Below are positions 6,935-56,960 of a DNA stretch of 64,000 bases, piece by piece. The DNA is taken from positions 384,001 through 448,000 of the forward strand of contig CAVSGM010000002.1 in assembly GCA_963727485.1 (NCBI GenBank). Reading direction: 5' to 3'. The notes under the pieces are model-generated. The model did no database searches. It saw only the letters and a list, made by a program, of their open reading frames with translations, and was not told the origin of the DNA. Origin of the DNA: an uncultured delta proteobacterium. GTDB taxonomy: Bacteria > Myxococcota > Myxococcia > SLRQ01. A program made the translations under genes and the position numbers. Each line of letters opens with the position of its first letter. The first letter of the stretch is position 1.

Positions 6935-8159
6935 GAGGCACCCGTCCCTTCCGCCCCCGCCCGTTCACTGCTGCCGATGGCCCGGCCCCGGCGCCCCGCC
7001 GCCCCGGCGAGGGCCTCGAGGCGGGACGCGGCCTCGTCGGCGCCCCCGGCACCCTGGAAGCTCGCCTGGATGCGCCGCGCCGCCGCCCGGTAGGCGCCGT
7101 CCTCGAGGACGGTGCGGAGGGCGACCGGCGAGCTGGCCCGCGGTGATACGCCCGAAGCTGCAGGCGCACCCCGGCCCCGGCAGCGACCACCTGCCCGGCG
7201 ACCACCGGCTGGTCGTCCTTCACCGGCGCCACCACCAGGGGCAGGCCGTGGGCCAGGGCCTCGCAGACCGTGTTGTGCCCGGCGTGGGTCACCACCGCGT
7301 CCACGTGGTCGAGGAGGGCCACCTGGGGGACGAAGTCCCGGCGGATGACGTTGGGCGGCAGCTCGGGGCACCGGTCCGCCGGGGCCACCAGGATGCCCTG
7401 CACCGGCAGGGACCCCAGGGCCTCGCAGGCGGCGGCGAAGAACCGCCGGCCCCGCTCGAAGTTCACCGTGCCCAGGCTCACCAGGACCTTGGGGCCGTCG
7501 GCGAGGGCGTCCCAGGGGAAGTCGACCTGGGGGCGGTCGGCGAAGGCCGGGCCCACGAAGGCATAGTGCCCGGGCCAGGGCCCCGCGCCCACCAGGGCCT
7601 CGGTGGAGAACACGACCACCAGGTGGGGTGAGAGGTCCGGGGAGCCGGGGGCCGGGTCGAGGCCCGCCTCGGCCTCGAGGGTGCGCACCTGCTGGTCGAG
7701 CCAGGCCTGCACCTTGGGCAGGCCCGCCAGGGGGTCGGTGATGGAGGCGGAGGTGGTGACGAAGCTGGCCCAGGGCAGGCCCCGGCGCCGGGCGACCAGG
7801 GTGCCCGCCAGCGTCTGGTGGTCGACGATCAGGGCGTCGGGGGCGAAGGCGTCCACCACGGCCTCGACCCCCGGCCGCATGGCCCGGGCCAGCGGCACCA
7901 GGAAGTCCTCCCAGAGGAACTTCAGGGACGCCAGGCCCCGGACGGTGTTGGCCCGGGCGGTCATCTTCTCCATGAGCGGCCTGGGCACCCGGTCGTCGAG
8001 CTCGTAGAGGGTGGCGCCGGCGGGGAGCCTTGGCCGCACCGCCCCCGGGTGCCCCACCCAGGCCACCTCGTGGCCCCGGCCGGCGAGGCTGGCGGCCACC
8101 GAGACGGTGGGGTTCACGTGCCCGGTGAGCGGGGGCACCACGAAGAGGAAGCGGCTCAC
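6931..8159 (-). CDS. GT1 (MGT/UDP-glycosyltransferase family) glycosyltransferase; frameshift near 7150
   Basis: N-terminal PPLTGHVNPT, VLVSLGT and the GT1 signature FVPQVALLDHVDAVVTHAGHNTVCEALAHGLPLVVAPVKDDQ. Confidence 0.9.
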
Positions 8160-8935
8160 GCGCCGGCCCCCCGGACCCAGGCCCCGAGGCGGTCCTTCAC
8201 GGTGTCGGTGGCCTCCCAGAGGACCGAGTGGCCGCAGCCGGGGAGCACCTCCACGGTGGCCCGGGGGAGCCTTTGGCAGAAGGCCTCGCCGACCGCCCGG
8301 ACGTCGGAATCGGCGCCGTAGAGGGCGAGCACCGGGGCCTCGAGGGCGGCGAGCGCGGCGGGGTCCACCGCCGGGGAGGCCTCGAGGTCGGCGAGGAGCG
8401 AGGTGCCCTCGACCAGGGCCTGGGCCTGGGTGGCCAGGCGGGTGCGCTTCCGGGCGCTGTGCCGGCCCGCCCAGGCGGCGAAGCGGTCGGCGATGAGGCT
8501 GTCCCGGTCGTCACCCTCGAGCCGAAGGGTGCCGGCCATCCGCGTGCCCCACCCCGGGTCCGGGACCAGGGCGTCCACGAGGAAGAGGCTCGCCACCGAC
8601 GCCGGCCGGGCCGCGGCGAAGGCCAGCGCCAGGAGGCCCCCGAAGCTGTTGCCCACCAGGTGCACCGGCCCGTCGACGCCGAGGCCGTCGAGGAGGGCCC
8701 CGAGGTCGGCGACCAGGTCGTCGAGGCCGTAGCCGGTGGCCGGGCGCGCGGAGAGGCCGTGGCCCTTGAGATCGTAGAGGATGGCCTCGGCGACGCCTTT
8801 GACCGCCGGCGCCGCGGCGAAGTACCAGCTCGAGAGGTTGTCCATGACCAGGCCGTGGACGAAGACCACGGTCTTCTCCCCGGCGCCGACGCGCTGGACG
8901 TGGTGGCGGACGCCCCGGAGCGCGAGATCAGCCAT
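8156..8935 (-). CDS. Alpha/beta fold hydrolase
   Basis: VFVHGL, YDLKGHGLS, nucleophile elbow GNSFGG, C-terminal GHS. ATG at 8935. Confidence 0.85.
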   Translation of the reverse strand: MADLALRGVRHHVQRVGAGEKTVVFVHGLVMDNLSSWYFAAAPAVKGVAEAILYDLKGHGLSARPATGYGLDDLVADLGALLDGLGVDGPVHLVGNSFGGLLALAFAAARPASVASLFLVDALVPDPGWGTRMAGTLRLEGDDRDSLIADRFAAWAGRHSARKRTRLATQAQALVEGTSLLADLEASPAVDPAALAALEAPVLALYGADSDVRAVGEAFCQRLPRATVEVLPGCGHSVLWEATDTVKDRLGAWVRGAGA

Positions 8936-9689
8936 CGAGGGCCTCCACCAGGGCCGCGGTGAGCCCCGCCGGGTTCTCGAGGGGCAGGTAGTGGCCGCCG
9001 TCGAGCGCCACCAGGCGCGCGCCGGGGACCACCCGGGCCAGGCGCGCCCCGGCGGGGAGGCAGGCGGACGACCGGCCGTAGACGGCGGTGAGGGGGGCCT
9101 CGAGGGCGGCGAGCTCGGCGTCGGGGACGTCGGCCTCGGCGGCCAGGTCCCGGGGGAGCGTGGTCCCGCCCACCAGGCCCGAGAGCTGGCCCAGGAGGCG
9201 CCGGGCCCGCCGGCCGCCGCCATCGAGGGCCGCCCGCTGCACCGCCGGGAGGCCCGCCACCAGGGTCGCCGGATCGGCGCTGGCGGCGACGGCGTCGATC
9301 TCGCCGAGGGTCGACGGGGGGAGCGGCGCGTCCACCAGGACCAGCCGGCGCACCTGCTTCGGGCGGTCGAGGGCGAAGCGCAGGGCCACCAGGCCCCCGA
9401 AGCTGTGGCCCACCAGGTCCACCGGCCCGGCAACCTCGAGGGCGCCGAGGAGGGCCTCGAGGTCCCCGGCCTGGGTCGCGACGTCGTAGCCGGTGCCGGG
9501 CCGCTCGGAGCGCCCGTGGCCGCGCAGGTCGTAGAGGACCACCCGGTGCGCCTTGGCCAGGGCCGGCGCCGCGGTGAAGTACCAGCCCGCCAGGCTCCCC
9601 ACCAGGAGCCCGTGGAGCATGACCACCGGGGGCCCGCTCCCGAGCTGCTGGACGTGGAAGCGCAGGCCGGCTGCGGGGATCAGCGACAC
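8928..9689 (-). CDS. Alpha/beta fold hydrolase
   Basis: VMLHGL, YDLRGHGRS, GHSFGG, GGHYLP. Confidence 0.85.
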   Translation of the reverse strand: MSLIPAAGLRFHVQQLGSGPPVVMLHGLLVGSLAGWYFTAAPALAKAHRVVLYDLRGHGRSERPGTGYDVATQAGDLEALLGALEVAGPVDLVGHSFGGLVALRFALDRPKQVRRLVLVDAPLPPSTLGEIDAVAASADPATLVAGLPAVQRAALDGGGRRARRLLGQLSGLVGGTTLPRDLAAEADVPDAELAALEAPLTAVYGRSSACLPAGARLARVVPGARLVALDGGHYLPLENPAGLTAALVEALDG

Positions 9690-9970
9690 CGGCCGATGAA
9701 CTCCACCACCTCGCCGACGGTGAGCCCGATGATGGCGTCCAGGTCCTTGTCGGCGAGCCAGCCGACGAAGTCCACGCCCTCGCCATAGCGGGCCTGCATC
9801 TTCTCGGCGAGGGCGACGAGCTCGATGCTCTCGAGCTCCAGGTCCTCGGAGAACGAGGTCTCGGGGCCGATGTCCAGCTCGTCTGCCCAGCCCTCGCCGA
9901 TGACCTCGCGGACGAGGCCGGCGACGGTCTGGAGGATCTCCTGCTCGGATGTCGATACCAGGGTGTCCAT
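9680..9970 (-). CDS. Free-standing acyl carrier protein
   Basis: 96 aa acidic protein with DLELESIELVAL (phosphopantetheine Ser) and LTVGEVVEFI; G-rich SD-like sequence before ATG 9970. Confidence 0.85.
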   Translation of the reverse strand: MDTLVSTSEQEILQTVAGLVREVIGEGWADELDIGPETSFSEDLELESIELVALAEKMQARYGEGVDFVGWLADKDLDAIIGLTVGEVVEFIGRCR

Positions 9971-10058
9971 CTCACCCCCTGGGTACCACGAATCCGAGGT
10001 CGATGCCGCATTCCGGGGCCTTACGGGCGACAGCCGGGGTCGGCTATCCTGCGGGCCG

Positions 10059-10904
10059 ATGCCGGTTGCCGACGACCACTCCGGCGGAGACCTCTCGGTC
10101 ACCGCCCTCTACACCTGCCAGACCTGGGCCTGGGGCGGCCTCCCGGGGGCCGAGCTGCTGGCCACCGCCGACAGCCGCCGGGTCTTCGGCGCCACCAACC
10201 TCTTCCTCGGCCTCGCCCGGCTCTTCCGGCCCCGGCTGCCCTCCCTGCGCCACTCCCTGGTGCTCCGGCACCTCATCCTCGACCACCTCACCGCCGAGGC
10301 CGGGAGCCCCCAGGTCCTCGAGCTCGCCGCCGGGCTCTCCCGCCGGGGCGTGACCCTCTCCTTGGACCCGGCGGTCACCTGCACCGAGGTCGACCTGCCC
10401 CCCATGGTCGCCCACAAGCGCGCCCTCCTCGCCGGGACCGAGGCCGGCCGCGCCGCCCTCGCCCGCCCCAACCTCCGCCTGGTCGAAGGCGACGCCCTCG
10501 ATGGCGCCTGGACCGGGCTCGTGGACCCATCCCGGCCGGTGACCCTCATCGCCGAGGGCCTCCTGGTCTACCTCGACGCCGAGGCCCGCCGGGCCCTGTG
10601 GCGCCTCGCCGCCGAGGTCCTCCGGGCCGCCGGCGGCGTGCTCCTCTTCGACCTGGTCCCCGGCGCCGAGGAGCCCCGCCCGGGCCCCCTCGGCCGGGCC
10701 CTGGGCTGGCTGATGCGCCGGTTCACCGGAGGCCGGGGCTTCGTCCGCGCCGGGGAGACCCGCTCCGAGCTCGTCGCCGACCTGGCCGCCTGCGGGCTCA
10801 CCGACGTGACCCTGGTGGAGCCGGCGACGGCGCCGGCGGGCTGGCAGCTCCCCTTCGGGGACCGGCGCACCCAGACCGTGGTCTTCCGCTGCGCCCCGCC
10901 GTGA
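10059..10904 (+). CDS. Class I SAM-dependent methyltransferase (leucine carboxyl methyltransferase/TcmP-like)
   Basis: QVLELAAGLSRRG, EVDLPPMVAHK, TLIAEGLLVYLD; TATCCT 8 nt upstream of ATG 10059. Confidence 0.8.
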   Translation: MPVADDHSGGDLSVTALYTCQTWAWGGLPGAELLATADSRRVFGATNLFLGLARLFRPRLPSLRHSLVLRHLILDHLTAEAGSPQVLELAAGLSRRGVTLSLDPAVTCTEVDLPPMVAHKRALLAGTEAGRAALARPNLRLVEGDALDGAWTGLVDPSRPVTLIAEGLLVYLDAEARRALWRLAAEVLRAAGGVLLFDLVPGAEEPRPGPLGRALGWLMRRFTGGRGFVRAGETRSELVADLAACGLTDVTLVEPATAPAGWQLPFGDRRTQTVVFRCAPP

Positions 10905-10942
10905 GACGGCCCGAGACCCCCACGCGTGCTAGCGTCCGGCCG

Positions 10943-11410
10943 ATGGCCGACGACCCCACGAGCCCCATCGACGACGCCGACGAGCGCCGGCGCGAGCGGC
11001 GCCTGTGGGTCGGCCTGGGGGTCGCCTCGGTGGTGGCCGCCCTCCTCTTCGGGCCGGGGCTGGTGCACCTCTCCGAGCGGCAGATGGAGATGGAGGCCGC
11101 CCGGTGGCCCTCGACCTGGCGGCCCGTGGCCCGGGCCATGGTCTCCCTCGCCGAGCGGGTCCCCGCCGAGCGACGCAGCGGCCCCGGGGACGAGGCCTGG
11201 GTCCCCGAGGCCATCCGCCACCTCCACGGGCGGGTCGACGCCGCACCGGGCCGGGTCACCGTGACCTTCGGCGATCCCGCCCACCGGTTCGGCTACCGGC
11301 TGGTGCCGGACCCGGCGGAGGCCGACGCCACCCACCTCGCGTGGCGCTTGAGCTACTTCTCCTACAGGCTTGATTCGCCGAAGGTTTTGAAGGTGATCCG
11401 CCGGCCCTAG
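10943..11410 (+). CDS. Hypothetical single-pass membrane protein
   Basis: ORF with one hydrophobic segment (LWVGLGVASVVAALLFGPGL); TGcTAGCGT 7 nt upstream of the ATG. Confidence 0.55.
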   Translation: MADDPTSPIDDADERRRERRLWVGLGVASVVAALLFGPGLVHLSERQMEMEAARWPSTWRPVARAMVSLAERVPAERRSGPGDEAWVPEAIRHLHGRVDAAPGRVTVTFGDPAHRFGYRLVPDPAEADATHLAWRLSYFSYRLDSPKVLKVIRRP

Positions 11411-14022
11411 CCGACCCCCACCGTCCCCCGCTTGCCCCCAGGCTGGAGGTCGGCGCAGTTCGGGAAGGGCCCGGTGGCCCCGGTGGGATCGGCCAGCAGG
11501 TAGCGGGTGACCGTCGCCTTGTCGAAGCGCCGGGAGAGCCAGAAGAGGTCGTACTCGTTGACCTTGTCGATGGTGCGGATGCCCAGCTCCTCGATGCGCC
11601 CGAGGATCCGGTTCCGGGAGGCGTCGATGGTGTCGCGCTTCTCCTCCCACTTCAGGCCCCCGACCTCGTCGTAGGCCATGGTCAGCTGCCCGGTCTTGAG
11701 CCGGTCGAGGTCCGGGCGCAGGGCGATGCCCTCGAGCTCCGGCTGCACCCCCATCCCCGGGAAGAGGTAGAAGCCCTGGAAGCAGCCGATGACGTCGATC
11801 TCCTGCTGGAGGGTCTCCACCAGGGAGACGGTGAGGTCGACGTCCTCGGGGGTCTCGTGGAAGTAGCCGGCGATGAGGTTCACCCGGTTGAGGATCCCCG
11901 CCTGGTGGGTGTGCCGGAGGGTGGCGAGGATGTCGGCGCGCTTGAGGCCCTTGTGCATCCGCTCGAGGATGGCGTCACTGCCGCTCTCGGCGCCGAAGTT
12001 GAGGAGCAGGCACCCGCTCTGGCGCATCAGGGACGCCAGCTCCTGGGAGACCTTGGTGGGCCGGCAGGAGTCGGTCCACTGGATCCCCGCGTCGGCGTCC
12101 ACCAGGAAGCGGCAGAAGCGCTCGAGCCACTTGGGCCCGATGTTCACCAGGTTGTTGAGGAACACGAAGTCCCGGGCGCCGTAGCGCTCGGAGAGCTCGA
12201 TGAGCTCGCCGGCGGCCTTCTCCGGGGCCTGGATGTCCAGGGACTCCTTGGCCGAGCAGAAGGTGCAGCTCGCGGTGCACCCCTTCACGAACCCGAAGGG
12301 CAGGTAGAGCAGCGGGTCCACCGGGTCGTCGGCGCCGAGGAGGCCGTCGGCGACCAGGCGCCGGCGCACCGGCTCCGAGAGGCGGCCCTGGTAGCGCTCG
12401 AGGGGCATCCCGTCGAAGTCAGGCCTCGGCATCGCCGCCATGTGGGAGCGGACCACCCGGTTGCGGATCAGCTCGCCGCCCTCCCGGGCGCACATCCCGG
12501 GGACGTCCTGGATCCGCCGGTCGCCGTAGGCCAGGAGGTGGGCGAGGCCGAGGAGCGGCACCTCGCCGTCGCCCTCGCACACGTAGTCGAAGGGCATGCC
12601 CTCGCCGAGGCCCCGGTCGGCGTCGACCTGGTCCCGCTCGCCCCCGAGGACCGTGGGGTAGCCGGTCTCGGCGCGGACCTTCCGCGCGAGGCACGAGGCC
12701 AGGTTCATCTGGAAGTTGCCGTAGTAGTCGACGATGGAGAAGCCCACGAGGGTCCGCCGGGGGAGCGCCTCGGCGAGGGCGGGCCACATGGCGTCGACGG
12801 CGGCGTCGATCCCGGCGTTGGCGCCGCCTCCGAGCCAGGCGTCGACCGCCGCGTCGTCGGCGAAGACCCCGAGGGGCACCGCCTCGAACTCGCCGGCGAG
12901 GTCCACCACCCGGGTCTCGAAGCCGTAGGCCCGCATGAACGCCGAGAGGCGGGCGATGGCCAGCGACGGGAGGCGCAGCTCGTCGTGGCGGTTGCGGAAC
13001 CGGGGCACGTGGACCAGGACCAGGTCCAGGGGCCGGGAGCGCCGGCGGGCCTCGGCCTCGGCGAGGTGGCGGCGGACCGTGCGGCCGGCGTCCACGGCCG
13101 AGCGCGGGGCCGCGAGACGCTTCGTGCCGGTGGCACCGGCGAGGGCGTGGCGCACCAGCAGCTCGTCGGCGCCGCGCGGGTCGAGGGGGACGTGGTCGGC
13201 ACGGCGCCCGTCGAGGCGGAGGAGCAGGTCCCGGCCCTCGTCGTCCCACCGGGCCACCAGCGCGCCGTCCCGGCCCCGGACCTCGAGCTCCAGGGGCCCC
13301 TCGCCGACCATGGCCCGGTCGAGGTCCACCTCCAGGCCGACCCCGTCGAGGAGGCCGTGGGCCACGTAGCGCTCGGCGCCCGGGTTGGCGACCAGCTCGG
13401 TGGGGGCGGTCACCGCCCCGGCGCCGGGGACGCAGAGCTCCAGGAGCCGGTAGGCCGGCCCCGCGAGGGCCGCCAGGCGCGCGACCGTCGGCAGATCGAA
13501 GTCGAAGGAGAGCCGCGCCCCGCCCTCGAAGGGGGTCCGGTGGTTGGAGGCCGGGAGGCGCCGGCGCCCGGCGGGGGTGCGCACCGCCACCTGGGTGAGG
13601 GGCCCGAGGGCGCCCGCCCGGACCTGGCCGAGGAGGGTCGCCATCGCCAGGGAGCCGATCCCCTGGCCCCCGGCGTGGAGGGTCCCGGTCCCGAGGCCCT
13701 CGAGGGCGGCGAGGTCGTCGGGGGGAAGCCCCATCCCGTCGGCGAGGATCACCGTGGCCCCGGCCTCGAGGCCCGCCCGGGCCAGGCCCCCGGCGTCCGG
13801 GACGTCCGCGTCGACGAAGAGGCACCCGCCGGCGGTGAGCTCGCCGAGGACGGCGGCGCCGCCCGCGGCCCGGATCGCCGTCAGGTCCTCCGGGGTCCGG
13901 ATCGTCAGGGCCGCCGCGCCCCCGAGGCGCTCGAGGCGGCGGGCGAGGCCGTCCGGACGGGCCGAGATGGCGAGGACCGGTCGACGCAGAGCCCGGCCAC
14001 GGGCCGCTGGGAGGGAAGCCAT
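11407..14022 (-). CDS. Cobalamin-binding radical SAM enzyme (class B methyltransferase-like) with a degenerate Gfo/Idh/MocA-like N-terminal region
   Basis: B12-binding region (PSLAIARLSAF..VVDL, VGFS, TVLGG, DYVCEGDGE), GCTASCTFC, GAESGSDAILERMHKG. An N-terminal extension of about 330 aa resembles a Rossmann oxidoreductase. Confidence 0.85.
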   Translation of the reverse strand: MASLPAARGRALRRPVLAISARPDGLARRLERLGGAAALTIRTPEDLTAIRAAGGAAVLGELTAGGCLFVDADVPDAGGLARAGLEAGATVILADGMGLPPDDLAALEGLGTGTLHAGGQGIGSLAMATLLGQVRAGALGPLTQVAVRTPAGRRRLPASNHRTPFEGGARLSFDFDLPTVARLAALAGPAYRLLELCVPGAGAVTAPTELVANPGAERYVAHGLLDGVGLEVDLDRAMVGEGPLELEVRGRDGALVARWDDEGRDLLLRLDGRRADHVPLDPRGADELLVRHALAGATGTKRLAAPRSAVDAGRTVRRHLAEAEARRRSRPLDLVLVHVPRFRNRHDELRLPSLAIARLSAFMRAYGFETRVVDLAGEFEAVPLGVFADDAAVDAWLGGGANAGIDAAVDAMWPALAEALPRRTLVGFSIVDYYGNFQMNLASCLARKVRAETGYPTVLGGERDQVDADRGLGEGMPFDYVCEGDGEVPLLGLAHLLAYGDRRIQDVPGMCAREGGELIRNRVVRSHMAAMPRPDFDGMPLERYQGRLSEPVRRRLVADGLLGADDPVDPLLYLPFGFVKGCTASCTFCSAKESLDIQAPEKAAGELIELSERYGARDFVFLNNLVNIGPKWLERFCRFLVDADAGIQWTDSCRPTKVSQELASLMRQSGCLLLNFGAESGSDAILERMHKGLKRADILATLRHTHQAGILNRVNLIAGYFHETPEDVDLTVSLVETLQQEIDVIGCFQGFYLFPGMGVQPELEGIALRPDLDRLKTGQLTMAYDEVGGLKWEEKRDTIDASRNRILGRIEELGIRTIDKVNEYDLFWLSRRFDKATVTRYLLADPTGATGPFPNCADLQPGGKRGTVGVG

Positions 14023-14099
14023 GGGGGCAGTCTAGCCCAGCGGCGCGCCGGCCTTCCAGGTGGGCGACGCGCCCGGGCCTTCGTGTAGGATGGGCGCCG

Positions 14100-17048
14100 G
14101 TGGACACCCAGAGCCAGCGCATCTCCGAGCTCGCCGTCGGCGCCGGCTGCGAGCTCGACTGTCCGGTCTGCGCCTGCAACGCCTCGGGCGGCGCCGATGC
14201 CGGCGCCCTCGCCCGGGCCCTCGCCGGGGGCGGCGCCCGGCTCAACCTCGTCGGGGGCACCCGGGACCTCGCCCAGGTCCTCGACCTCGCCCACCGGGGC
14301 CGGGACGCGGGCTTCGCGGAGATCGTCGTCCGGACCAGCGCCCTGGCCTTCGCCGAGCCCGGCGCCGCCGTGACCCTGTTCCGGGAGGGCGTCGACGGGG
14401 TCCGGGTGCCCCTCTACTCGGCCCGCGCCCAGGTCCACGACCGGATCGCCGGCCGCGAAGGCGCCCTGGTCCAGGCCCTGGTCGGGATGCGGGCCCTGGC
14501 GGCGGCCGGGTGCTTCGTGGAGATCGAGACGCCCCTGCTCCCCGAGCGCCTCCAGGACCTCACCGCCGTGGTCGACCTCGCCGCCCGGGCGGTCCCGGAC
14601 CTCCGCGCGGCGCGCTTCCACCTCCCCCAGGGTCCGGTCCCGGCGGCCCTGGCACCGCCCGCCTTCGGCGTCGCCGGCCCGGCCCTCGCCCGGGCCCTCG
14701 CCCGGTGCGAGGCGCTGGGGGTCGAGGCCCCGCTGACGCCCGCCGAGGCCATCCCCTTCTGCGCCCTCGCGGCCCACCCCGAGCACCTCCGGGCCTTCCG
14801 CTTCGACCCTCGGCGCCGAGCCCGGTCCCAGCCCTGGGCGAGCCACCCGGCCCTCTGCGAGGGCTGCGCCGCCCGGCCCCAGTGCCAGGGGCTCCCGGCG
14901 TCCTACCTGACGGCCCACGGCACCGCCGGCGTCACGCCCTTCGCCCGGCGTCCCCGGGATCTCTACGACCAGCGGACCACCCCCCGCCGGGTGTGGACCG
15001 ACGACCAGCGCGAGGCCGCCTCCCGGGCCAGCCTCCTGGTCCTGCGCCCGACGGTGAACTGCAACCAGGACTGCGTGTTCTGCTCGGCGAACGAGACCTC
15101 GGGGAACGTGTGGTCCGACCCGGACCGGATGTACCGGGTCATCGCCCGGGCCGCGCGCCGGAACCTGCGGCAGGTGAGCTTCAGCGGCGGCGAGCCCACC
15201 CTCTCCAAGCACCTGCCCTCGTTCATCCGCGTGGCCCGGCGCGCCGGGATCCCCCGGGTCGAGGTGGTGACCAACGGCGTCCTCCTCGACACCCCGGAGC
15301 GGGTCGCGCGCCTGGTGGACGCAGGCCTCACCCACGCCTTCGTCTCGCTCCATGCCCACGACGAGAACCTCGCCCGGGGCCTCACCCAGAAGGTGGGCGA
15401 CTTCGAGCGGACGGTGCGGGCCATCGGCCTGCTCTCCGAGGCCGGGGTGAAGACCGCCGTGAACCACGTCATCACCACCCGCAACTACCGCTACCTGCCC
15501 CACTTCGTGGCCTTCGCCCGGGCGCGCTTCGGGGGCCGGGTGGGGATCTCCTTCGCCTTCGTCACCCCCCAGTACAAGGCCCTGGAGCACCTCGATCTCC
15601 TGCCCCGGTTCAGCGACGTCATGCCCTACCTGAAGCGGGCGCTGCTGCGCGCCCTCGACCTGGGGCAGCCGGCGTGGGTGGGCTCGCGACAGGGCATCCC
15701 GCCCTGCCAGCTCGGCGCCTTCCAGGCCTGGTCCGACGTCCTGGGCCTGGCCGAGGAGGCGGTCTCCGAGGACGGTCCCCAGAAGACCCACGGGCCCGCC
15801 TGCGAGGGCTGCCGCTACGCCCGGGTGTGCACCGGGGTGTGGCGGCCCTACGCCGCCCGCTACGGGACCGACGAGCTGCGCACCGTCCCCGGAACGCCGG
15901 TGGAGTCCCTCGACGCCGAGGCCCTGGCCAGCATGCGGCAGAACGACTTTGGCATCCCCGAGGACTTCGACCACGTCCTCGACACCCTCCGCGACCGGGC
16001 GGACGAGGCCGCGACCCGGGCCCTCGCCGACGCCGCCGAGGCCGAGCCCGAGCCCTCGGCGCCTCCGGCCCTGGATCGGAGCCGGCCGCTGCGCGTCGCC
16101 CTGGTGGGCACCGGCCCCCGGGCCCGCCGCCTGGCCCGGGAGCTGACCCGGGTCCCCGGGGTCAGCCTCGACGCCGTGGCCTCACCCCACGCCCCGGACG
16201 GGGACCTCGGCGAGTTCGGCCACTGCCCCGCCTACCGGGACGCCGCCGAGGCCCTCGACGACATCCGCCCCGAGGCGGTGGTCATCGCCGCGGCCACCCG
16301 GGCCCACCGGGCGCTGGCCGAGGACGCCCTCAACCGGGGCATCCCCGTCCTCCTGGAGAAGCCGCTGGCCGGGCGCCTCGAGGACGCCGAGGCCCTGGTG
16401 GCCCTCGCCGGCGACACCGGCGTCCCCCTGGTCCCGGCCCACAACCTCCTCCACGCCCCCGGCCTCGCCGAGCACCTGGCCGGCGGGCCCCACGCGCGCA
16501 TCGACTACCACCTCCGGTGCCCCGCCGATCGCCCGGACGCCCCCCGGGCCTGGTCCCACGCCGGGCTCTACGAGACCCTCTACCACGTGCTGGTGGTGGT
16601 CGGTCGCGGCGCCGGCGGAGGCGTCCCCGAGGTCCGGGCCGCGTCGGCGACGGGCACCACCCGACCCTCCCGGGTCCGGGCGACGCTCGCCTACGCGGAC
16701 ACCGAGGCCGAGGTCCGCCTCGACTTCGACGCCGCCGTGGAGGACCTGGCGGTGGCGGTCTCCGGCGCCGACGGCGAGGCCCGGACCTGGCGCCGGGCCC
16801 GGGGGACGGCAACCCTCGAGGCCGGGGGCGTGGTGACGCCCCTCGAGCCCCGCGCCGGGGAGCTCGAGGCGATGGTCGCCGCCTTCCGGGATCACGTCCT
16901 CGGCCAGGGGCCCGCGGCGGCCTCGGCCTCGGAGGCGGTGGACGTCATGGCGGCCTGCGACCGGGTCATCGCGGCCCTCGAGGCCGCCGGCGCGCCCCTG
17001 CGCCGGGCCCGGGCCCCCAAGCACGTGGCCTCCCGGACCCTCGGCTGA
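14100..17048 (+). CDS. Tandem double radical SAM protein with auxiliary CxxCx5C motifs, fused to a C-terminal Gfo/Idh/MocA oxidoreductase
   Basis: CELDCPVC with CEGCAARPQC; CNQDCVFC with GGEPT and CEGCRYARVC; then RVALVGTG and VLLEKPLA. Confidence 0.85.
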   Translation: MDTQSQRISELAVGAGCELDCPVCACNASGGADAGALARALAGGGARLNLVGGTRDLAQVLDLAHRGRDAGFAEIVVRTSALAFAEPGAAVTLFREGVDGVRVPLYSARAQVHDRIAGREGALVQALVGMRALAAAGCFVEIETPLLPERLQDLTAVVDLAARAVPDLRAARFHLPQGPVPAALAPPAFGVAGPALARALARCEALGVEAPLTPAEAIPFCALAAHPEHLRAFRFDPRRRARSQPWASHPALCEGCAARPQCQGLPASYLTAHGTAGVTPFARRPRDLYDQRTTPRRVWTDDQREAASRASLLVLRPTVNCNQDCVFCSANETSGNVWSDPDRMYRVIARAARRNLRQVSFSGGEPTLSKHLPSFIRVARRAGIPRVEVVTNGVLLDTPERVARLVDAGLTHAFVSLHAHDENLARGLTQKVGDFERTVRAIGLLSEAGVKTAVNHVITTRNYRYLPHFVAFARARFGGRVGISFAFVTPQYKALEHLDLLPRFSDVMPYLKRALLRALDLGQPAWVGSRQGIPPCQLGAFQAWSDVLGLAEEAVSEDGPQKTHGPACEGCRYARVCTGVWRPYAARYGTDELRTVPGTPVESLDAEALASMRQNDFGIPEDFDHVLDTLRDRADEAATRALADAAEAEPEPSAPPALDRSRPLRVALVGTGPRARRLARELTRVPGVSLDAVASPHAPDGDLGEFGHCPAYRDAAEALDDIRPEAVVIAAATRAHRALAEDALNRGIPVLLEKPLAGRLEDAEALVALAGDTGVPLVPAHNLLHAPGLAEHLAGGPHARIDYHLRCPADRPDAPRAWSHAGLYETLYHVLVVVGRGAGGGVPEVRAASATGTTRPSRVRATLAYADTEAEVRLDFDAAVEDLAVAVSGADGEARTWRRARGTATLEAGGVVTPLEPRAGELEAMVAAFRDHVLGQGPAAASASEAVDVMAACDRVIAALEAAGAPLRRARAPKHVASRTLG

Positions 17049-17065
17049 TGCGACCGCGACCCGGG

Positions 17066-18880
17066 CTAGGCGTCGTTGCGGAGGATGACGTCGCAGACGC
17101 GCGAGGGCCGCGCCCGAGGGTCCCACCTTCCCCGGTACGCAGGTCGTAGTGCCGGGAGCGGGCGAAGGCCGGGTGTCGCTCCTCGGCACGAGCTCGAGGT
17201 CCACGGGCGCCGCCTCCGGGTGCTCGAGGCGCACCTGGAACCTGCCGGGGTCACGGAGATGGGACCGAAGCGCCAGCCGGCGGCAAAGGGTCCCTCGAGG
17301 TCCAGGGGTCGCACCAGGCGCGCGAAGCGGTCGCGCACCGCCGGTGAGGCGGGCGCGGCGTCTCCTCCATCCCCAGGCGCCGGCTCGGGACGGCGGGTTG
17401 CCGCAGCGAGGACCCGGGCGGCGTCGACGTCGGCCCACCGCTCGCCGGCGGCGTCGAAGGCCTCGAGGAGCACCTGGAAGATGCGGAGCTGGTCCTGGCC
17501 CCCGGTGCGCTCCACCACCTCGACGGCCACCTCTGCGAAGCGGGCTACCTGGGGGTCCTGGAACCGCCAGGGGTTCGAGGGGAAGTAGCCGTAGCGCCGC
17601 GAGTTGTCGGCGGCCGCGGCGGCGAGGTGGTCGACGAGGAGGCCGTCGCGCCGGGCCAGGTAGTAGAGGGCCGTGTCCGGGTAGAGACGCGCCCGGCTGT
17701 GGAGGAGCTTTCCCCGGAGCCGGTCGAAGCGGGTCCGCCGGATGCCCTCGAAGTTCGTCCGCAGGTCGTCCATCCGGGTCCAGGGGCTGAAGAGGACGAA
17801 CCCGAAGGCGGCGTTGTCGAGGTCGAGGGTGTCGCCGAAACGTTCGCGCCAGCCCCAGAGGGCCTCCAGGAAGGCGACGTTGGTCTCGGCCCGGATGCCC
17901 TTGTTGTAGCGGTCGAGCTCGGGCTGGGAGAAGTTCTCGATACCCACCAGGTAGAGACAGAGCCGATCCCGCAGCCTCGGCGGCCTCCAGGGCCTGGACC
18001 AGGCGCCGCTCGCCCCGCAGGATCGAGTCGGCGCGGGTCTCCAGCATCAGGGTGAATCCCCGATCCGCCTCGCCACAGGTGGTCACCAGATCGGCGAGAT
18101 AGCCGAAGGGGTTCTGGTCCTTGAGGACCAGGTGGCCGAGCGCCGGGGCCTCGCCGCGGACGTAGCGGAGCTGGGCCAGGACCGAGTCGGCGACTCCTTC
18201 GTGGGACGGCCGTCGTGCTCGTTGCCGGCCGTGCAGAAGGCGCACCCGCGGCCATGGCCCGTTGGGATCTCCACCCGGCGTACACGGGGTTCTCCCGCGC
18301 GTCGGCCTGGTAGGGGCAGCCACCGTTCCCTGGAGGGCAAAGGTCCGGAACGACGGGAGGCGCTCGGGGTTGACGACCACCGGCCGCAGGTTCGGGCGGA
18401 AGTGCTCGGGCACCGGGGACACGGGGACCGTCTCCGCGGGGGCGACGAAGCCGGCCGCCTCCCGACGGAGGACCTTCTCGGGGGGCAGGTCGGCCTCTCC
18501 GGCGAGGTAACGGAGCAGGGGGCCGAGGGTGTACGGGTAGTGCTCGACGCAAATCCACTCCGCCGGCGGGTCCTCGATGTGGTGCTCGCCCCGGCAGTGG
18601 ACGAAGGTGCGTCGGGAGCCGCGCCCGGAGCCGCGTCACCAGGTCCCGGCTCCACACCCGCTCGTAGACCACCACCTGGTAGGGCTCCAGGGTCGAGCCA
18701 GGGCGGCCTCGGCGTCGGGGTCGGCGCCGCCTCGAGGACGACGACGACCAGGTCATTGGCGAGTCCGGCGTCCCGGAGCTGGCCCGACACCAGTGCGAGA
18801 TCCTGGTCGTCCAGGAACGACCGGTCGCCGTGGCTGTGGACGCTCAGGATCGCCACCTTCGGCGCAGCCGGGCCCTTCAT
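17066..18880 (-). CDS. Radical SAM-like protein with a split Cys motif; several frameshifts
   Basis: Joining frames gives GCPY-(about 20 aa)-RGCAFC, then LKDQNPF, LETRAD, VGIENFSQPELDRYNKG and FGFVLFSPWT (rSAM barrel motifs). Confidence 0.7.
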
Positions 18881-18976
18881 GGACCCAGGGTAGCCCACCG
18901 CTCGTCATCGGTAAACCACGTCCCCACGGTGCCGCGGCGACCTTGCACCGGCAATCGTGGTTACAACCTAGGCGGC

Positions 18977-20790
18977 ATGGCGTCCCCGGTCGACCCCGCC
19001 GCCCCGGTGGCGCTCCTCCTCGTCGGGGCCGGCGACCGGGCCCGGGCCTGGGCGCGCCTCATCGACCGGTCCCCGCGCCTGGTCCTCGTGGGCCGGGTCT
19101 CCCGGCGCGGGGAAGGCGCCGGGCTCGCCACCGGGGGGCCCGTCCACACCGACCTCGCCGCCGCCCTCGACGCCCACCCCGGCGCCCGGGTCGCGGTCGC
19201 CCTGCCCCCCCGGGCCGGCCTCGCCGCCGCCCGCTGACCTCGCCGAGCGGGGCCGCGCCGGCCTGGTCGAGGCGCCCCTGCCCCTCGTCGCCGAGGCCGA
19301 CACCCCCGGGGGCGCCGGGCGGATCCAGGTCGCCCACGGCTGGGTGACCCTCCCGGGGCTCGCCGTCGTCCACCGGGCCCTCGCGGCCCCGGGCGTCCGG
19401 GCCCTCTCGGTGCGGGTCCGGGGGCTCCCCGAGGCCCCCGGCGGCGATCTCCCGGAGGTCGTGGCCCAGGGCGCGGCCCTCCTCCGCCGCCTCTGCCCGG
19501 GGGCCGAGGTCGGCGCGGCGCGGGTCGACGGCGACGGCCTCCTCGAGGCCACCCTCGTCGGCGGTCCGGTGCCCGTGAGGTTCCGGGCGGAGGCCCACGG
19601 CCAGGGCCTCGAGGTGCGCCTCGAGGGCGACGCGGGGCCGCTGTCCTGGCGGGTCGAGGGGGACACCGAGTCCCTCTCGGCCGGGGCCGGCAGCGGGTAG
19701 CCGGTCGCGCCCGGTGGCCCCGGCGGCGACCCGGGCCCTCCACCAGCTCCTCGATCCCGGGGCCGCCGGCGGCGACGATTCTCGAGGCGGGCCTCGCCGC
19801 CGCCGCCCTCGCCCGTCGCCTCCTCGACCGCGCCGGACGCCGCCCCGCGCCCACCCGGCGGGCCCTGGACCACGCCGGCGCCCTCGCCGGGCGCCCGGGG
19901 GTCCCCCTCGGCGACCGCCTCGGCCTCGTGGGCCCCCTCCCCGAGGGCCCGCCGGCGCCGTTGCTGGCGGTCCCCCAGCCCGCAGCGCCCTTCGAGCGCT
20001 TCGCCTTCGAGGCCGGCCTCAAGCCGGTGGTCTTCCTCACCCTCCGCCCCGAGGACGAGGCGCGGGTCCGCGGGAGCTTCCCCGGGGCCCACGTGGTCCG
20101 GCGCGCGCGCCGGGTCGAGGTCGGCCCCCTCGACGCCTGGGACGACCGCCGGGACCGGGGCGAGCCGCGGGTCGAGCTCTACGTCTCCCGGGACCCGGCC
20201 CTCGCCGAGGAGGCGGCGCGGATCCAGGCCGAGGGCGACCCCAGCGCCTCGCTTCAGGCCCTCGGCGCGCTCATGGGCTACCCCAGGTGCTGCGTCGCCG
20301 CCTTCGCCGGCCAGGGCGACCGGAGCCACAACACCTGGAACCGCTACGCCACCGCCGCCCGCACCGGCGCCGGGCCCTGGCCCGCGGCCCTGAACAACCT
20401 CTTCGCCATGGTCGCGCCCTTCTTCCCCTGCCGCTACGACTGCCCCGAGGCCGCGCGGTGGGCCGAGGCGGTCCTGGCCGCGGTCGCCGCCGCCGAGCCC
20501 GCGGTGGCCGCGGGCCTGAAGGCGGCCCTCGCCCACCCGGTGCTCTACTTCGACGACGCCCACCAGGTGGTCCTCGACGGCCACCTCGAGGACGGCTGGG
20601 TCGTCTACCGAGGAGTCTTGGTGCCCCCGGAGAGCCCCGACGACCTCCGTCGCCTCGCCGGGGGCCTCGGCCCCGCCGGGCGCCTGCGCCTCGACGACGA
20701 CGCCCTCCGCCTCGAGCCCGCAGGGGGGCCGGCGCTCGCGTAATCCGCCGCACCGACCCGGGCCTGGGGCTCCTGGCGCCGTTCGCCTGA
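18977..20790 (+). CDS. Degenerate Gfo/Idh/MocA domain fused to a DUF483-like domain; frameshifted
   Basis: N-terminal LLLVGAGDRA..LVEAPL; C-terminal GLKPV, LGALMGYPRCCV and FFPCRYDC (DUF483-like). Probably ends GLGLLAPFA* at 20790 after a final frameshift. Confidence 0.65.
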
Positions 20791-20812
20791 CGCGCCCGGC
20801 GCGAGCACGGGG

Positions 20813-22026
20813 TTAGGTGATTGCACGGAGAAAATGAGGCAAGAAGGAGATCAGGGTGCCGGGGATGGTCGCGGGCCGGCGTCGGGCAAGTAGGCCACCC
20901 GGAAGGCATGATAAGGCCGGTGGTACGGGGGTCCGGGGTGAGCCCGTTGGGGTACGGCCTCTTGGCCGTGTTACGGAGGATGATGGTATGGCTCTGGAGC
21001 TCAGAGAAGTGCAAGAGGATGTCGGCGCGCTCGGCCGGCGCCATGACCATCGTCGACTGGGGCACGGCGCCGCGAGGAGGATGTCGCTGTGATCTGACAC
21101 ATGGTAGTCTCAGAGGAGAGGAAGAGGTAGTAGAACAGAGAGTTGGAGCTGTTGAGGATATGGAGGTGATAGAGGCGCGGCTCCACGTAGAGGAACGGCT
21201 ACGCTATGTCGTAGACGAGGATTACGTTGCTGAAGAACTCCGGCACACGGAGGGCACGTCTGTGCGTTGGTGAGGGTAGTAGATCATGGGCGCTAGGTAG
21301 TAGAGGGAGCTGTCGGTGCGGAAGGCGTGGTACTGGATCACTAGGGGCACCTCGTAGTCGCGCTGGGCAGGTTCAGGGCGTACTCGGTGGCGTCACGGAT
21401 GAGGTAGAAGCTAGCGAGCGAGGCGTAGACGTTGAGATGGGTGATGGCTATGGCGTGGTAGTGGTACCAGAGCGTCGCCGGGCTGGTAGTTAGGGTAGTA
21501 GTAGGAGAAGATGGGAGTCTGGCTGGGGCAGTAACAGTACTTGGGGTTGCAGTCGCTGTAGTAGGGGAAGTGGCTTTAGTGGAGGTGGGTGACGACTAGG
21601 GTCTCGCAGGGCGCGTCGCTCACGGTGTGGGTGGCGTAGAGGGTCAGGGTGGGGTCCACGGGGAGCAGGTGGACGGGGGGCAAGTCGTTCTCGCACCAGA
21701 CCTTGATGGGCGTGCCGGTGCGGGCCTCGATGGTCGGCCCCGGGAAGGAGCCGCCGTAGCCCCAGACGGTGGTCAGCAGCGGGGCCCCGGTGACCGGGTC
21801 GTAGATACCGAGGTGCTGCTGGAACTCGGTCATCGCCAGGCGGTAGGTCTCGACGCCGTCGATCGACTGGGCCGCGGGCAGCGGCGTGGCCACGGCGGGG
21901 CGCGGGAGCGGGTTGATGAACTGGGGCTGGGTGTGCGGATCGAGCGGCGGCGCCTGGGCCACGGCCGGGAGCACGAGGACGAGGAGAGGAGATGAGCGCC
22001 AGGAGGCGCAAGGCGAGCGTACCCAT
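20813..22026 (-). pseudogene. Multicopper oxidase (CotA/bilirubin oxidase type); G-depleted in its 3' part and missing the third cupredoxin domain
   Basis: Intact TTVWGYGGSFPGPTIEAR and VVTHLH, then degraded motifs WYHYHAIAITHLNVYASLASFYLIRD, PEFFSN, LNSSNS and MAPAERADI. In-frame stops where Gly and Trp are expected; no HPxHxH or HCH motif. Confidence 0.85.
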
Positions 22027-22303
22027 GGTTTCCCCCCGTAGCCGGCGGCCGGGGATCGGGCGCCGGCCAAAGCACCGCCGAGCCGCAGTGGACTGCCGGC
22101 GGCGGCGGCAACGGCTGCATTGGCGGTGCCGACGAGTCGGCCCGCGTCCGCGGCGGCGCCATTCCCGTGCGGGCACGCCGACTTCGCGGAGGCGCGGCCG
22201 TAGCCACTCCCGGCAGGGGTGCACCGGATGACGGCCGGGGCCCAGCCGGCGTGACTAATGTTGTACCTGGTGCCTGCACGAGGGGATGTTCCCGGCGGGG
22301 CCA

Positions 22304-25300
22304 TCACACCGCCGAGAAGGCGACCACGGCGTCGCCGTCCACCCGGGTCTCGAACCAGCCGTCGCCCACGCGCACCCGGCGCCCGGCGACCTCGACCACC
22401 CGCTCGGCCGACCCGTCCCCGCCGGCGACCGCGGCCGCCGCCTTCGCCGCCAGCAGCCGCGCCACCCCCTCGAAGGCCCCGCCCTCCTGCTGGTCGAGGA
22501 GCCGGCGCTCGCCGGCGTCGAGGCGCCTTGCCACCTCCGCGTCCTCCACCGGGGCGATGGGGACGAGGGCGATGCCCACCGGCCGCCCCTCGGCGGCGAC
22601 GGCGACGCTGCGATCGCCGAGGTGGGCCACCGCCACCCGCAGGTCCCGGCCGCCGATGGCCGCCCGCAAGAGCCCCGCGTCGTCGCCCTCGATGGGCACC
22701 TCCACCGGGAAGAGCGGCCCCTCGCCGCCCTCCCAGAGGAGGCGCCGGACCGCGTCCTTGGCGGCGATGCGCCCGTGGAGGAACCACCGCTGGCGCCTGG
22801 GCCCGGCCTCGAGCATCGCCACCCGCTCGGCCTCCCCGAGGTAGCGGCGCATGAGCCAGTCGCGGCTCGGGGGCCGGTGCTCGGCGTCGTCGTAGAGGAC
22901 GTAGGCGGCGGGGATCTGGCAGAGGAGGTTGTCCTCGGGCTTGCGGAGCACCGACCACAGGCGCACGTCGCTGGGGAAGCGGTGGTCGGTCCAGCCCTGG
23001 ATCCGGGCCCAGACCCGGTCGCCGGCGGCGAGCACCAGGTCGCCCCGGACCTCCCGGGCGTCGATGGCGGTGATCCGCACCTCGCAGCGCAGCCGCGTGC
23101 CCACCGCCGGGTGGGGCCCGAAGACCTCCAGGCGATCGACGCCCACGGGCATCGCCAGGCGGTCCTCGTTGCGGGTGTCCATGACCCAGTAGCCGAAGAG
23201 CTGGCCGGCGCTGTCGAGGAGGGCCCCGGGGCCCTCGGGGGTGACGAGCTCGCCCTCGACCCCGTCGTCGCCGACCTGGCCGATGGCGGCGACGCCCTGG
23301 TAGCGCGGCCCGTGGAACATCCACCGCTCGGCGTAGAGCTCGGCGGCGTCGATGGCCGCCGGGTGCGGGCTGGTCAGGGGCGGCACCGCCGGCGCCGGGG
23401 CCTCGGGGTACGCCGGGGCGAGGATCACCGTGGCCCGGGCGTAGTCGTCGACGCGGACGGTGACCCGGTCCGGCCCCGCGGGCTCCACCGTGAAGGTGAC
23501 CTCCACCGGGGGGTGGACGTCGATCCAGCGGAAGGCCCGGAGCTCCTCGAGGGCCACCGCCACCCGCCCGGGCGCCGCCGCCTCGGCCGCCTCCATCATC
23601 AGGCCGATGGTCATGGTCATGGGGACCACCGGCCGGCAGTCCGAGCGCACCGGCCACCCCTCGGGCTGGGGGAAGAAGCTGTGGTCCCGGAGCGCCGGGA
23701 CCGTGTCCACCGAGAAGGTCCGGGTCTGGCTCACCGACGCCGGCGCGCCCCCCTGCCCCGGCCGCGCCTGCCAGGCGTCGAGGGCCCGGAGGACGTCGTC
23801 CCGGGCGAGGTCGAGGGCCCGCAGGGTCTCGGCGGCCTCGGTGAACACCACGCCGGCGCCCCGGGGCACCGGCCGCTTGGGCCCCGCGCCCAGCTCCAGG
23901 GGCGGCAGATCGACGGTGACCGCCGGCGCCCCGAGGGGGATGCGCAGGGGCCGGCCGCGGCGGCGGTGGCCCGGGATCAGGGGCCCGAGGTCCATCTCCA
24001 CGCCCTCGACCCAGAGCGCCAGCGCCAGGTTCCGCAGCTGGGCCAGCCCCGGGCGCCTCGCCACGTTGGCGCTCACCGCCAGGTGGGGCCGGCCCCGGAG
24101 GGTGTCCTCGACGAAGCCCTGGAGGCGCCCGGTGCCCACCTGGACGAAGTGGCGGAAGCCCTGGTCGTGGAGGTTGAGCAGGAGCTCCCGGAAGCGCACC
24201 GGCTCCACCAGGTGACGCAGGGCCAGGGCCCGGATGGCCTCGGGCTCCGCCGGGAACGGGGCGCAGGTCGTCGCCGACCACACCGGGGGATCGCCTGGGC
24301 CCAGGGGCAGGCGGGTGAAGTGGTCCCGGTGGGGGCCGAGGTAGCCCTCGAAGAGGGGCGAGTGGAAGCCCGAGCGGAACGGGAGCACCTGGCAGAGGAC
24401 CCCGCCCGCGACCAGGCGCTCCCGGGCGGTGTTGATGGCCGCCTCCCGGCCGCAGAGGATCACCTGGTGGGGGCAGTTGTCGTGGGAGACGGCGATGCCG
24501 TCGAGGCCCTCGATGGCCCGGCTGGCGACGTCGACGCCGCAGCCGGCGGCGGCGAAGAGGACCCCGGGGACCTCCAGGGTGCCGGCGCGCAGGGTCCCGA
24601 TGAAGGCGTCGGCGGCGTCCTCGCCGATGGCGCCGCTGACGATCATGGCCGTCCACTCGCCGATGCTGTGGCCGGCGACCGCGTCGGGGGTCAGGCCCAG
24701 CTGCCGGAGCACCCGGTCGAGGAGGCGGCTGACCCCGACGATGCCCATCCCCTGCTCCTCGATGCCCTCGGCCTCGAGGAAGGGCGGGAGCGGCAGCTCG
24801 AAGCGCTCGGCGACGTCCTCGACCCTCGGCTCGAAGGCGGCGTCGACCCCGGGGAAGAGGAAGGCGACCTTGCCGCCGCCGGTGCCCAGCGCCCGGGGGC
24901 TGAACCAGATGCCCTCCCGGCCGCGCCACGGGGCGCCGGTCTCGATCACCCGCCGGGCCCGGGCGAGGCGCGCCGGGGTCGGGTCCACCAGGGCGAGGCG
25001 CACCGGGCCCGCGACCTCGGGGGCCCCGGGGTCCGCGCCCGGGTCGTCGCCGACGCCCACCGGGGCGCCCTGATCCGCGGCCTCGAGGCGGGCGAGGAGC
25101 CCGGCGGCGTCCGCGGCGGCCAGGCGGAGGACCGGGCGGTCGGTGCCGTCCTCGGGGCGGGGCCGGCGCCGGCGCTCCCGGACGCCGTGGGAGGCGAGCA
25201 CCACGTGGGCGTTGATGCCCCCGAAGCCGAACGCGTTCACCCCGGCCACCCGTCCGTCGCCCTCCCAGGGCTCGGCGGCGGCGGTGACCCGGAACCGGGT

Positions 25301-33324: not shown

Positions 33325-33396
33325 GCCGTCGCCGCTGTCTGAAGCTCCCGACCCCCGGGATCTCCAGAAGATAGCACGGATCCTGGAGGTATCGCC

Positions 33397-54394: not shown

Positions 54395-54574
54395 ATGCGC
54401 GGCACCAAGAAGCGAAGCATCTACGTCCCCGCCGACATCCTCGAGGAGATCGAGCACGAGATGCAGCGGCAGGAGCGGACCATGTCCTGGCTGGTGCAGC
54501 AGGCCTGGCGCGTCGCCCGTCCCACGATCCAGAGCCTCCCCGGGGTCGAGGATCACTTCTCCGGCGTGGCCTGA
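54395..54574 (+). CDS. TIGR04563-like small protein (ribbon-helix-helix-like)
   Basis: KRSIYVPADILEEIEHEMQRQERTMSWLVQQAWRVAR; good SD; paralog at 56754. Confidence 0.8.
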   Translation: MRGTKKRSIYVPADILEEIEHEMQRQERTMSWLVQQAWRVARPTIQSLPGVEDHFSGVA

Positions 54575-56753: not shown

Positions 56754-56960
56754 ATGGCCGGCACCGACAAGCGAAAGCAGAGCCTTTACTTCCCCGAGGA
56801 CATGCTCAAGGAGATCCAGGAGGAGGCGGCCCGGCAGGACAGGTCCCTCTCGTGGGTCGTCCAGCAGGCGTGGCGCCTCGCCCGTGGCGAGATCACGAAG
56901 TTCCCCTCGGTGAACGACGTCATCGGCGGCAGCGACGACATCCGCGGCCGGGACGAGTAG
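56754..56960 (+). CDS. TIGR04563-like small protein (ribbon-helix-helix-like)
   Basis: DKRKQSLYFPEDMLKEIQEEAARQDRSLSWVVQQAWRLAR; GGAG SD; TTGACA at 56690. Confidence 0.85.
   Translation: MAGTDKRKQSLYFPEDMLKEIQEEAARQDRSLSWVVQQAWRLARGEITKFPSVNDVIGGSDDIRGRDE

Follow-up and report, generated by a model that had tools for sequence, protein, structure and literature searches.

A four-gene radical SAM block inserted beside polyketide genes is a candidate detached accessory set of the myxobacterial HxsA4 (His-Gly-Ser repeat) system

In Escherichia coli, the HXS system (HxsABCD) acts on a His-Xaa-Ser substrate that is matured by HxsB, HxsC and HxsD, and it protects the cell from phages by keeping their DNA from getting in (PMC13128918). 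In that study, a +8 Da change (+C/-4H) maps to SHRSS in E. coli HxsA, over 99.8% of HXS systems consist of four genes, 99.7% are found in Pseudomonadota, and the periplasmic effector has ~214 amino acids and a peptidoglycan-binding domain; the function was the first for the His-Xaa-Ser motif, in 2026, and the radical chemistry is still unresolved. A cousin of this anti-phage system, the HxsA4 core set, is catalogued in NCBIfam and is chemically unstudied. Here we describe four genes, A-D, that fill positions 11407-20790 (the block) of a 64-kb stretch of DNA from an uncultured delta proteobacterium (the window, G000:C2:384001-448000; the genome, G000, measures 5.55 Mb and is 93% complete). A-D are genuine genes on alternating strands (-,+,-,+; two divergent pairs) and do not form a single operon. 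We favour, with some confidence, the reading that the block serves the HxsA4 system as a detached group of tailoring accessories, predicted to act in trans.

The HxsA4 system resembles the E. coli HXS system in its His-Xaa-Ser repeat substrate and in HxsB, HxsC and HxsD. It differs in that HxsA4 is a short peptide, made up of a leader and a core, that carries 13-27 H-x-S units, and in that at least 12 radical S-adenosylmethionine (SAM) paralogues are present here, some of them fused to a dehydrogenase, a methyltransferase or a peroxiredoxin. Repeated modification of a repeat-core precursor by a radical SAM enzyme is also known from the TVG pathway (TvgA/TvgB), although the repeats there are TVGG and the product is cyclopropylglycine, and the abstract mentions neither an expansion of HxsC nor a fusion with Gfo (PMC9062424). 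Likeness to the aminoglycoside pairs GenD1/GenD2 and AprD4/AprD3, in which an NAD-dependent oxidoreductase accompanies a radical SAM fold of the cobalamin type, with GenD2 (6nor) and AprD4 (6fd2) among the fold matches, is at the level of fold only; here we find an HxsC-like fusion, two of three Gfo-like domains without the catalytic lysine, and tracking of a peptide precursor. Compared with the NCBIfam HxsA4 set itself, all five families score above cut-off in this genome, the radical SAM domains of B are HxsC-like and A-D travel with HxsA4, but A-D reach no model above its cut-off and lie here 1.15 Mb from the precursor. A literature search, in which most subscription journals were not covered, returned no paper on HxsA4, HxsC4, HGS repeats, the Hxs TIGR families, DUF483 in this context, the four A-D families, myxobacterial repeat cyclophanes or CX23-25CX2C motifs.

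Searching the genome with B pointed to C2:1.525-1.563 Mb, where several paralogues are grouped. A 105-aa open reading frame (ORF) in this region encodes a 47-aa leader ending in LLAQ, followed by HVS-(HGS)18-W, in which H-x-S occurs 19 times before the closing Trp; it is the only run of at least three H-x-S units in the genome, and it scores 120.5 with the HxsA4 model (NF038313; cut-off 55). Beside it stand HxsB (TIGR03978, 378.9 with a cut-off of 370), HxsD (TIGR03976, 60.8 with a cut-off of 50) and an HxsD-like protein (NF038315, 58.4 with a cut-off of 41), and HxsC4 (NF038332, 546.4 with a cut-off of 500) follows 3 kb further on, at C2:1551411. The surrounding cluster holds 12 or more radical SAM proteins (Pfam recognises 10 among 26 selected proteins, to which HxsB and HxsC4 are added; one that lies 14 kb further on was excluded), an HExxH hydroxylase, two halogenase-like flavoproteins, UbiA, a protein with a metallo-beta-lactamase fold and an ATP-binding cassette (ABC) transporter. 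It contains a 36% paralogue of C and no orthologues of A, B or D, whose only strong copies in the genome are those in the window. The sequence-only reading of this DNA had seen no substrate gene for the block. Locally this holds, as judged by the coding score (no precursor-like short ORF within 10000-22400) and by a scan for H-x-S (no run of at least three anywhere in the 64-kb window), but the genome does encode HxsA4. Among the substrates proposed in that reading, a peptide encoded elsewhere is thus the branch that we favour, with HxsA4 1.15 Mb away and HxsA4 present in nearly all genomes that carry B.

This association was followed in other genomes. Relatives of B (42-59%) were collected from 30 loci, one per genome, with myxobacteria and Binatia among the hosts. 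HxsA4 scores above cut-off in 28 of these 30 genomes; as a background, it does so in 18 of 250 genomes from the phylum of the window and in 51 of 251 from the class to which G017 belongs. The sequence-only reading had made co-occurrence in other genomes the test of its module, and the 30 genomes contain C-like genes in 24 cases (20 at E <1e-120), D in 22 and A in 6, the A orthologues sharing 62-68% identity. In the class sample of 251 genomes all 11 carriers of B are HxsA4-positive, and B is found in none of the 200 HxsA4-negatives. When G017, G023 and G028, which overlap with the first set, are left out, B occurs in 8 of 48 HxsA4-positive genomes versus 0 of 200 negatives, all eight carriers being positive. 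C was found in two of the 250 phylum genomes, both HxsA4-positive, and A in none of the 250.

Physical linkage points the same way. In 11 of the 30 genomes (G001, G005, G006, G007, G009, G013, G014, G016, G023, G028 and G030) one of A-D lies less than 50 kb from HxsA4 on the same contig, and in the eight carriers just mentioned B is within 25 kb of HxsA4 in four, 138 kb away in one and on another contig in three. In G005 (Archangiaceae) B, A, C and D are contiguous and lie 6.9 kb from HxsA4, in a region of ~52 kb in which 18 of 35 scanned proteins match radical SAM in Pfam (one of them below cut-off), or 19 when C is included. D lies 1.1 kb from HxsA4 in G013, followed by A and a copy of B, and in the named and cultured Paraliomyxa miuraensis SMH-27-4, B, D, a paralogue of C and HxsA4 are all found within 40 kb. 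In three genomes, G012, G022 and G024, B stands apart from HxsA4 although its contig exceeds 100 kb, and G020 shows no HxsA4 above cut-off; detached modules therefore recur. We also note that the G005 cluster (L039) contains WelO5-like, tryptophan-halogenase-like, PhyH, cupin and UbiA genes, and that six HxsA4 copies above cut-off lie on one contig at G030:C7:1155336-1311886, with two to four copies in several Binatia genomes.

The protein encoded by B is predicted to consist of two HxsC-like radical SAM domains fused to an intact-looking Gfo/Idh/MocA dehydrogenase (Pfam Radical_SAM, 110 bits; GFO_IDH_MocA, 67.1 bits with a cut-off of 24). HHalign matches the N-terminal 290 aa to the second radical SAM domain of the same protein (probability 99.6). 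The first domain appears degenerate, with CxxxCxxC in 19 of 22 sequences and GGE, which binds SAM, in only two. The second has the form CNQDCVFC, a C-terminal four-cysteine motif, and GGEP in all 22. In the Gfo domain GxGxxA is kept in 19 of the 22 sequences, EKP, whose lysine is catalytic in Gfo/Idh/MocA enzymes, in 20, and an acidic-x3-His motif in 16, so that B alone among the three Gfo-like domains of the block retains the catalytic lysine motif; this domain resembles sugar and inositol dehydrogenases, including GenD2. In NCBIfam, B comes nearest to HxsC4 (NF038332, 131.5 with a cut-off of 500) and HxsC (TIGR03977, 102.2 with a cut-off of 267.9), both below cut-off, and B is a paralogue, the true HxsC4 of the genome being the gene at C2:1551411. 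A tree of 95 domains, a quick version with weak deep branches, resolves about a dozen well-supported orthologue clades common to HxsA4 clusters, and the catalytic domain of B forms a clade of its own with support 100. Other HxsC-like fusions were observed with a peroxiredoxin (AhpC/TSA; L010:17177-18670) and with a class I methyltransferase (L002:6554-8356).

A combines a radical SAM domain (Pfam, 53 bits; CxxxCxxC in all six sequences) with a probable cobalamin-binding domain, which stays below the Pfam cut-off (B12-binding, E 0.006, 16.8 with a cut-off of 32.1). Its best NCBIfam rows are the B12-type enzymes ApyD, PhpK and the C-methyltransferase TIGR03975 of RiPPs (ribosomally synthesised peptides with post-translational modifications), all far below cut-off. 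The first ~330 aa reach 0.93 to Gfo clusters of the Atlas, a lead only, as no more than 135-149 features are shared, and HHalign gives E 0.038 across 59 columns; GxGxxG/A near the start and EKP are both found in none of six sequences. We read A as a degenerate Gfo/Idh/MocA-like domain (aa ~1-330) followed by the putative cobalamin-binding and class-B-like radical SAM domains.

C is split across several frames in the assembly, and was reconstructed from its frame pieces against intact relatives. Two contigs of a sequencing run (X2; 578 and 833 bases, with 2 and 5 substitutions and 6 and 7 gaps) are near-identical to it and carry extra bases at the frame switches (17964-18612), so the frameshifts are likely assembly errors. 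D, also split across several frames, has an extra base at its first switch, 19235, in one contig of run X1; each such point is one contig, at a depth of ~5-6. A structure model of the C relative in L006 (predicted local distance difference test, pLDDT, 83.8) matches OxsB (Foldseek E 2.4e-14), AprD4 (6.6e-13), CysS, TsrM and TokK, and from this model C is predicted to have a radical SAM fold of the cobalamin-dependent type. The intact C of L006 gives a weak radical SAM match in Pfam and no NCBIfam row at E 1e-8. Its cysteines follow CX24-26CX2C in 13 of 13 sequences, the canonical CxxxCxxC being found in none of the 13, and in the L006 model this motif sits in the loop after a barrel strand.

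D is modelled as a Gfo/Idh/MocA fold, in which the lysine of EKP is missing, followed by a fused DUF483-like domain. Residues 3-273 of the L006 relative (pLDDT 85.7) match Gfo enzymes with Z 22.8 and a root-mean-square deviation of 3.0 over 261 aligned residues. The fold matches, GenD2 (6nor) among them, have 11-22% identity and are tied across the whole Gfo family, and HHalign links the domain to the Gfo domain of B (99.4). The EKP lysine is found in none of seven sequences; a downstream Glu is kept in seven and a His in six. The C-terminal domain has the motifs GYPxCC and PCxYxC in all seven, DUF483 scores of 20.3 and 24.7 with a Pfam cut-off of 25, and 0.94 in the Atlas, where the top clusters carry DUF483 on 20-34% of their members and share 219-222 features. 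A DUF483 match follows B within ~1 kb in six loci (L009, L011, L016, L021, L028 and L033), and in L028 the stop of B overlaps the start of D; this suggests that D partners B. A predicted complex of the two Gfo domains, both from L006, scored 0.00 (mark 0.32; no control folds were run). Stand-alone DUF483 paralogues were also seen (L011:12971-13678, L016, L021 and L029; directly after B in three loci), and DUF483 may be a regular component of HxsA4-type clusters. Searches of the PDB with the block proteins yielded little.

Most of what had been read from the letters about these proteins holds. The four radical SAM domains, which are of three types and spread over three proteins, are those of A, B (two) and C, by Pfam, HHalign and the model of the L006 relative, and the cysteine-motif protein likened to DUF483 is D. 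Oxidoreductase-like domains on three proteins are confirmed for B and D by Pfam and fold, and are a lead only for A. The four genes are borne out, with the alternating strands and the frameshifts in C and D as corrections. That no described pathway fits is right insofar as A-D stay below the cut-offs of all characterised families, but the block is probably a detachable part of a much larger catalogued system and not a stand-alone one.

We propose that A-D belong to the HxsA4 system, which we hold to be very probable, and that they act directly on its peptide, which is somewhat more probable than the alternatives together. The proposal is supported by the HxsC4 and HxsC models as B's top rows, the core set in this genome, the co-occurrence with HxsA4, the linkage in relatives and the orthologue clade. 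Relatives of the block occur almost only in genomes that carry the HGS peptide, so A-D likely add radical modifications to it. In a possible scheme, the core enzymes HxsB, HxsC4 and HxsD would first modify the His-x-Ser units, perhaps by His-to-Ser cross-links (a guess from three-residue cyclophane chemistry). The active HxsC-like domain of B would then carry out another hydrogen abstraction, and its NAD(P)-dependent Gfo domain would oxidise or reduce the resulting hydroxyl or carbonyl, which derives from serine. Methylation or rearrangement could fall to A, and perhaps to C, as cobalamin-type enzymes, and D, which has conserved cysteines and no dehydrogenase lysine, could partner B either without catalysis of its own or by binding a metal. 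It is improbable that the chemistry is exactly as in this scheme.

Several observations weigh against this proposal. The precursor lies 1,150,696 bases from the block, albeit on the same contig, and no gene of the block reaches the cut-off of an Hxs family in NCBIfam; the enzyme chemistry given for A-D is inferred. Two of the 30 B-carriers, G003 and G020, have no HxsA4 above cut-off, A is present in 6 of the 30 only, and 40 of the 51 HxsA4 genomes of the class lack B, making the dependence one-way. G148, of the same family as our genome, has the HxsA4 core with B matches at paralogue level only and no orthologue of C. The scans scored five candidates per genome for C in the phylum and three per genome for B in the class, many sampled genomes are fragmented, and kin are not independent; because the genomes are related, the Fisher values of 9.5e-9 and 1.2e-6 overstate the association. 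Finally, HxsA4 clusters hold UbiA-like, halogenase-like, epimerase and membrane glycosyltransferase-like genes, so that a non-peptide substrate is possible.

This last point leads to an explanation in which A-D belong to the HxsA4 supercluster but act on a small molecule, such as a sugar, a cyclitol or a prenylated or lipid-linked group, attached to the peptide or made beside it. The resemblance of the Gfo domains of B and D to sugar and inositol dehydrogenases, GenD2 included, fits such a role, as do the top folds of C, OxsB and AprD4, which act on small molecules (going by entry titles), and the UbiA, epimerase and PMT-like genes of HxsA4 clusters. However, the fold matches, at 11-22% identity, tie over the entire Gfo family, A scores 19.3 with the AprD4 diol dehydratase model NF033070 (cut-off 500), the radical SAM domains of B fall in the HxsC-like set, and no nucleotide-sugar pathway was seen among the selected proteins scanned. 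We consider this explanation unlikely, and the sugar, cyclitol or lipid-head-group substrate that the sequence-only reading drew from GenD1/GenD2 and AprD4/AprD3 is not favoured, as B is nearest to HxsC4 and HxsC and tracks HxsA4. A further idea, compatible with peptide chemistry, is that the HGS peptide, once matured, acts against phages as the effector of the gammaproteobacterial HXS system does, and that A-D diversify it. The common HxsB/HxsC/HxsD core, the defence shown for HXS (PMC13128918) and the patchy distribution of HxsA4 speak for this role. Yet HxsA4 has 105 aa, with a low-complexity collagen-repeat match as its sole Pfam hit and no peptidoglycan-binding domain, compared with the ~214-aa HxsA that has one, and 12-19 radical SAM proteins, set against the nearly universal four-gene layout of HXS, look more like natural-product biosynthesis; we give this role a low probability as well.

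The position of the block, between a polyketide synthase (PKS) gene region (22304-33339) and a run of acyl carrier protein (ACP), hydrolase and glycosyltransferase genes (6810-9970), would suggest that it tailors the product of a flanking polyketide or glycolipid cluster. This is very improbable: A-D have no match in the stretches fetched from all four relatives with the same PKS, and conversely no PKS, ACP or glycosyltransferase match was found in any of the 30 B loci, so the flanking PKS genes are probably unrelated to the block. What comes directly after the PKS is the ACP in G142 and G173 and the methyltransferase in G282 (on a contig of only 7.4 kb), and G148 has 8 kb of unrelated genes in the PKS-ACP gap, which is a variable insertion point that takes different inserts. 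The interruption of a PKS-ACP operon by the block, together with the many frameshifts of C and D in the assembly and the missing orthologues in G148, could indicate a stray block, recently inserted or decaying, that no longer works with the precursor of this genome. Against this, A and B are unbroken and keep their conserved motifs, run X2 supplies extra bases at the switches of C (X1 does so at the first switch of D only), other window genes, including ftsH-like and PKS genes, are frame-split too, and the detachment of B in G012, G022 and G024 is seen on long contigs. We regard a stray as improbable, and retain the detached HxsA4 accessory set as the preferred reading.

New here are four unnamed accessory families tied to HxsA4, a radical SAM-dehydrogenase fusion, a cluster motif with long spacing, and a module that is movable and sits at an unrelated locus. 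The four families now have a candidate substrate, which makes an orphan cluster testable; new enzyme chemistry is likely to come from each of the 12-19 radical SAM proteins per short peptide, the fusion and the non-canonical motif, taken as three features; and mining by neighbourhood only would assign the block to the wrong (PKS) pathway. More speculatively, and with considerable doubt, myxobacteria and Binatia might make a single product out of an (HGS)n peptide, using a fixed cast of at most ~19 radical SAM proteins. HxsC-like domains would provide a chassis that is reused in fusions with dehydrogenase, methyltransferase and peroxiredoxin domains, dead Gfo-like and radical SAM domains would dock, C would bind its cluster via CX24-26CX2C, and the block would be an optional movable module that alters the decoration in trans.

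The genes of the block and its immediate neighbours are given in Table 1. The membrane-anchored protein that converges on A is probably a passenger, and the multicopper-oxidase gene is the flank of the inserted block, whose membership we do not claim. In the 3' part of the latter (20850-21560) the coding strand has a G content of 0.19, compared with 0.27 upstream, and many stops. Run X1 differs from the window at 19 of ~155 bases at 20838-20992 and matches elsewhere; with the mismatches confined there, this is probably a low-quality assembly stretch.

Table 1. Genes of the block and adjoining genes (positions in the window)
Feature	Position	Strand	Description
Gene A	11407-14022	-	871 aa, open frame
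Gene B	14100-17048	+	982 aa, open frame
Gene C	17066-18880	-	Frameshifted in assembly; ~600 aa in relatives
Gene D	18977-20790	+	Frameshifted in assembly; ~590 aa in relatives
Small membrane-anchored protein, converges on A	10943-11410	+	No Pfam match; no tblastn match in 30 B loci
Multicopper-oxidase gene	20850-22224	-	3' part garbled; Pfam Cu-oxidase_3 E 6e-5

The G+C content of the block, ~76-78%, is similar to that of its surroundings. Terminal repeats of a mobile element were sought within 10700-22500, where only GC-rich chance repeats appeared, and no obvious conserved motif was seen by eye in seven C-D divergent spacers of 40-190 bases. The sequencing runs listed as containing this DNA (shares <0.2) include no RNA run.

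Further Hxs-like genes are found elsewhere in the genome. A second HxsB (58% to the first) lies with an HxsC-like gene at L004:5825-8229 (G000:C1), with no H-x-S precursor nearby, and is another detached piece of an Hxs system; a lone HxsC-like radical SAM gene at L005:7148-8047 (G000:C11) is flanked by genes that we take to be ruvB-like and lpxC-like. The genes bordering the HxsA4 cluster at G000:C2:1512321-1515441 look like M16 peptidase subunits, although the scanned piece gave no Pfam match, and could be a leader protease or unrelated neighbours. The PKS cluster beside the block, found in 4 of 60 relatives, comprises ketosynthase-acyltransferase (KS-AT) and acyltransferase-dehydratase (AT-DH) modules, an ACP, two alpha/beta hydrolases, a glycosyltransferase and a methyltransferase. 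Elsewhere in the window, two short paralogous genes (54395-54574 and 56754-56960) have the form KKRSxYxPxDxLxEI and resemble small DNA-binding proteins.

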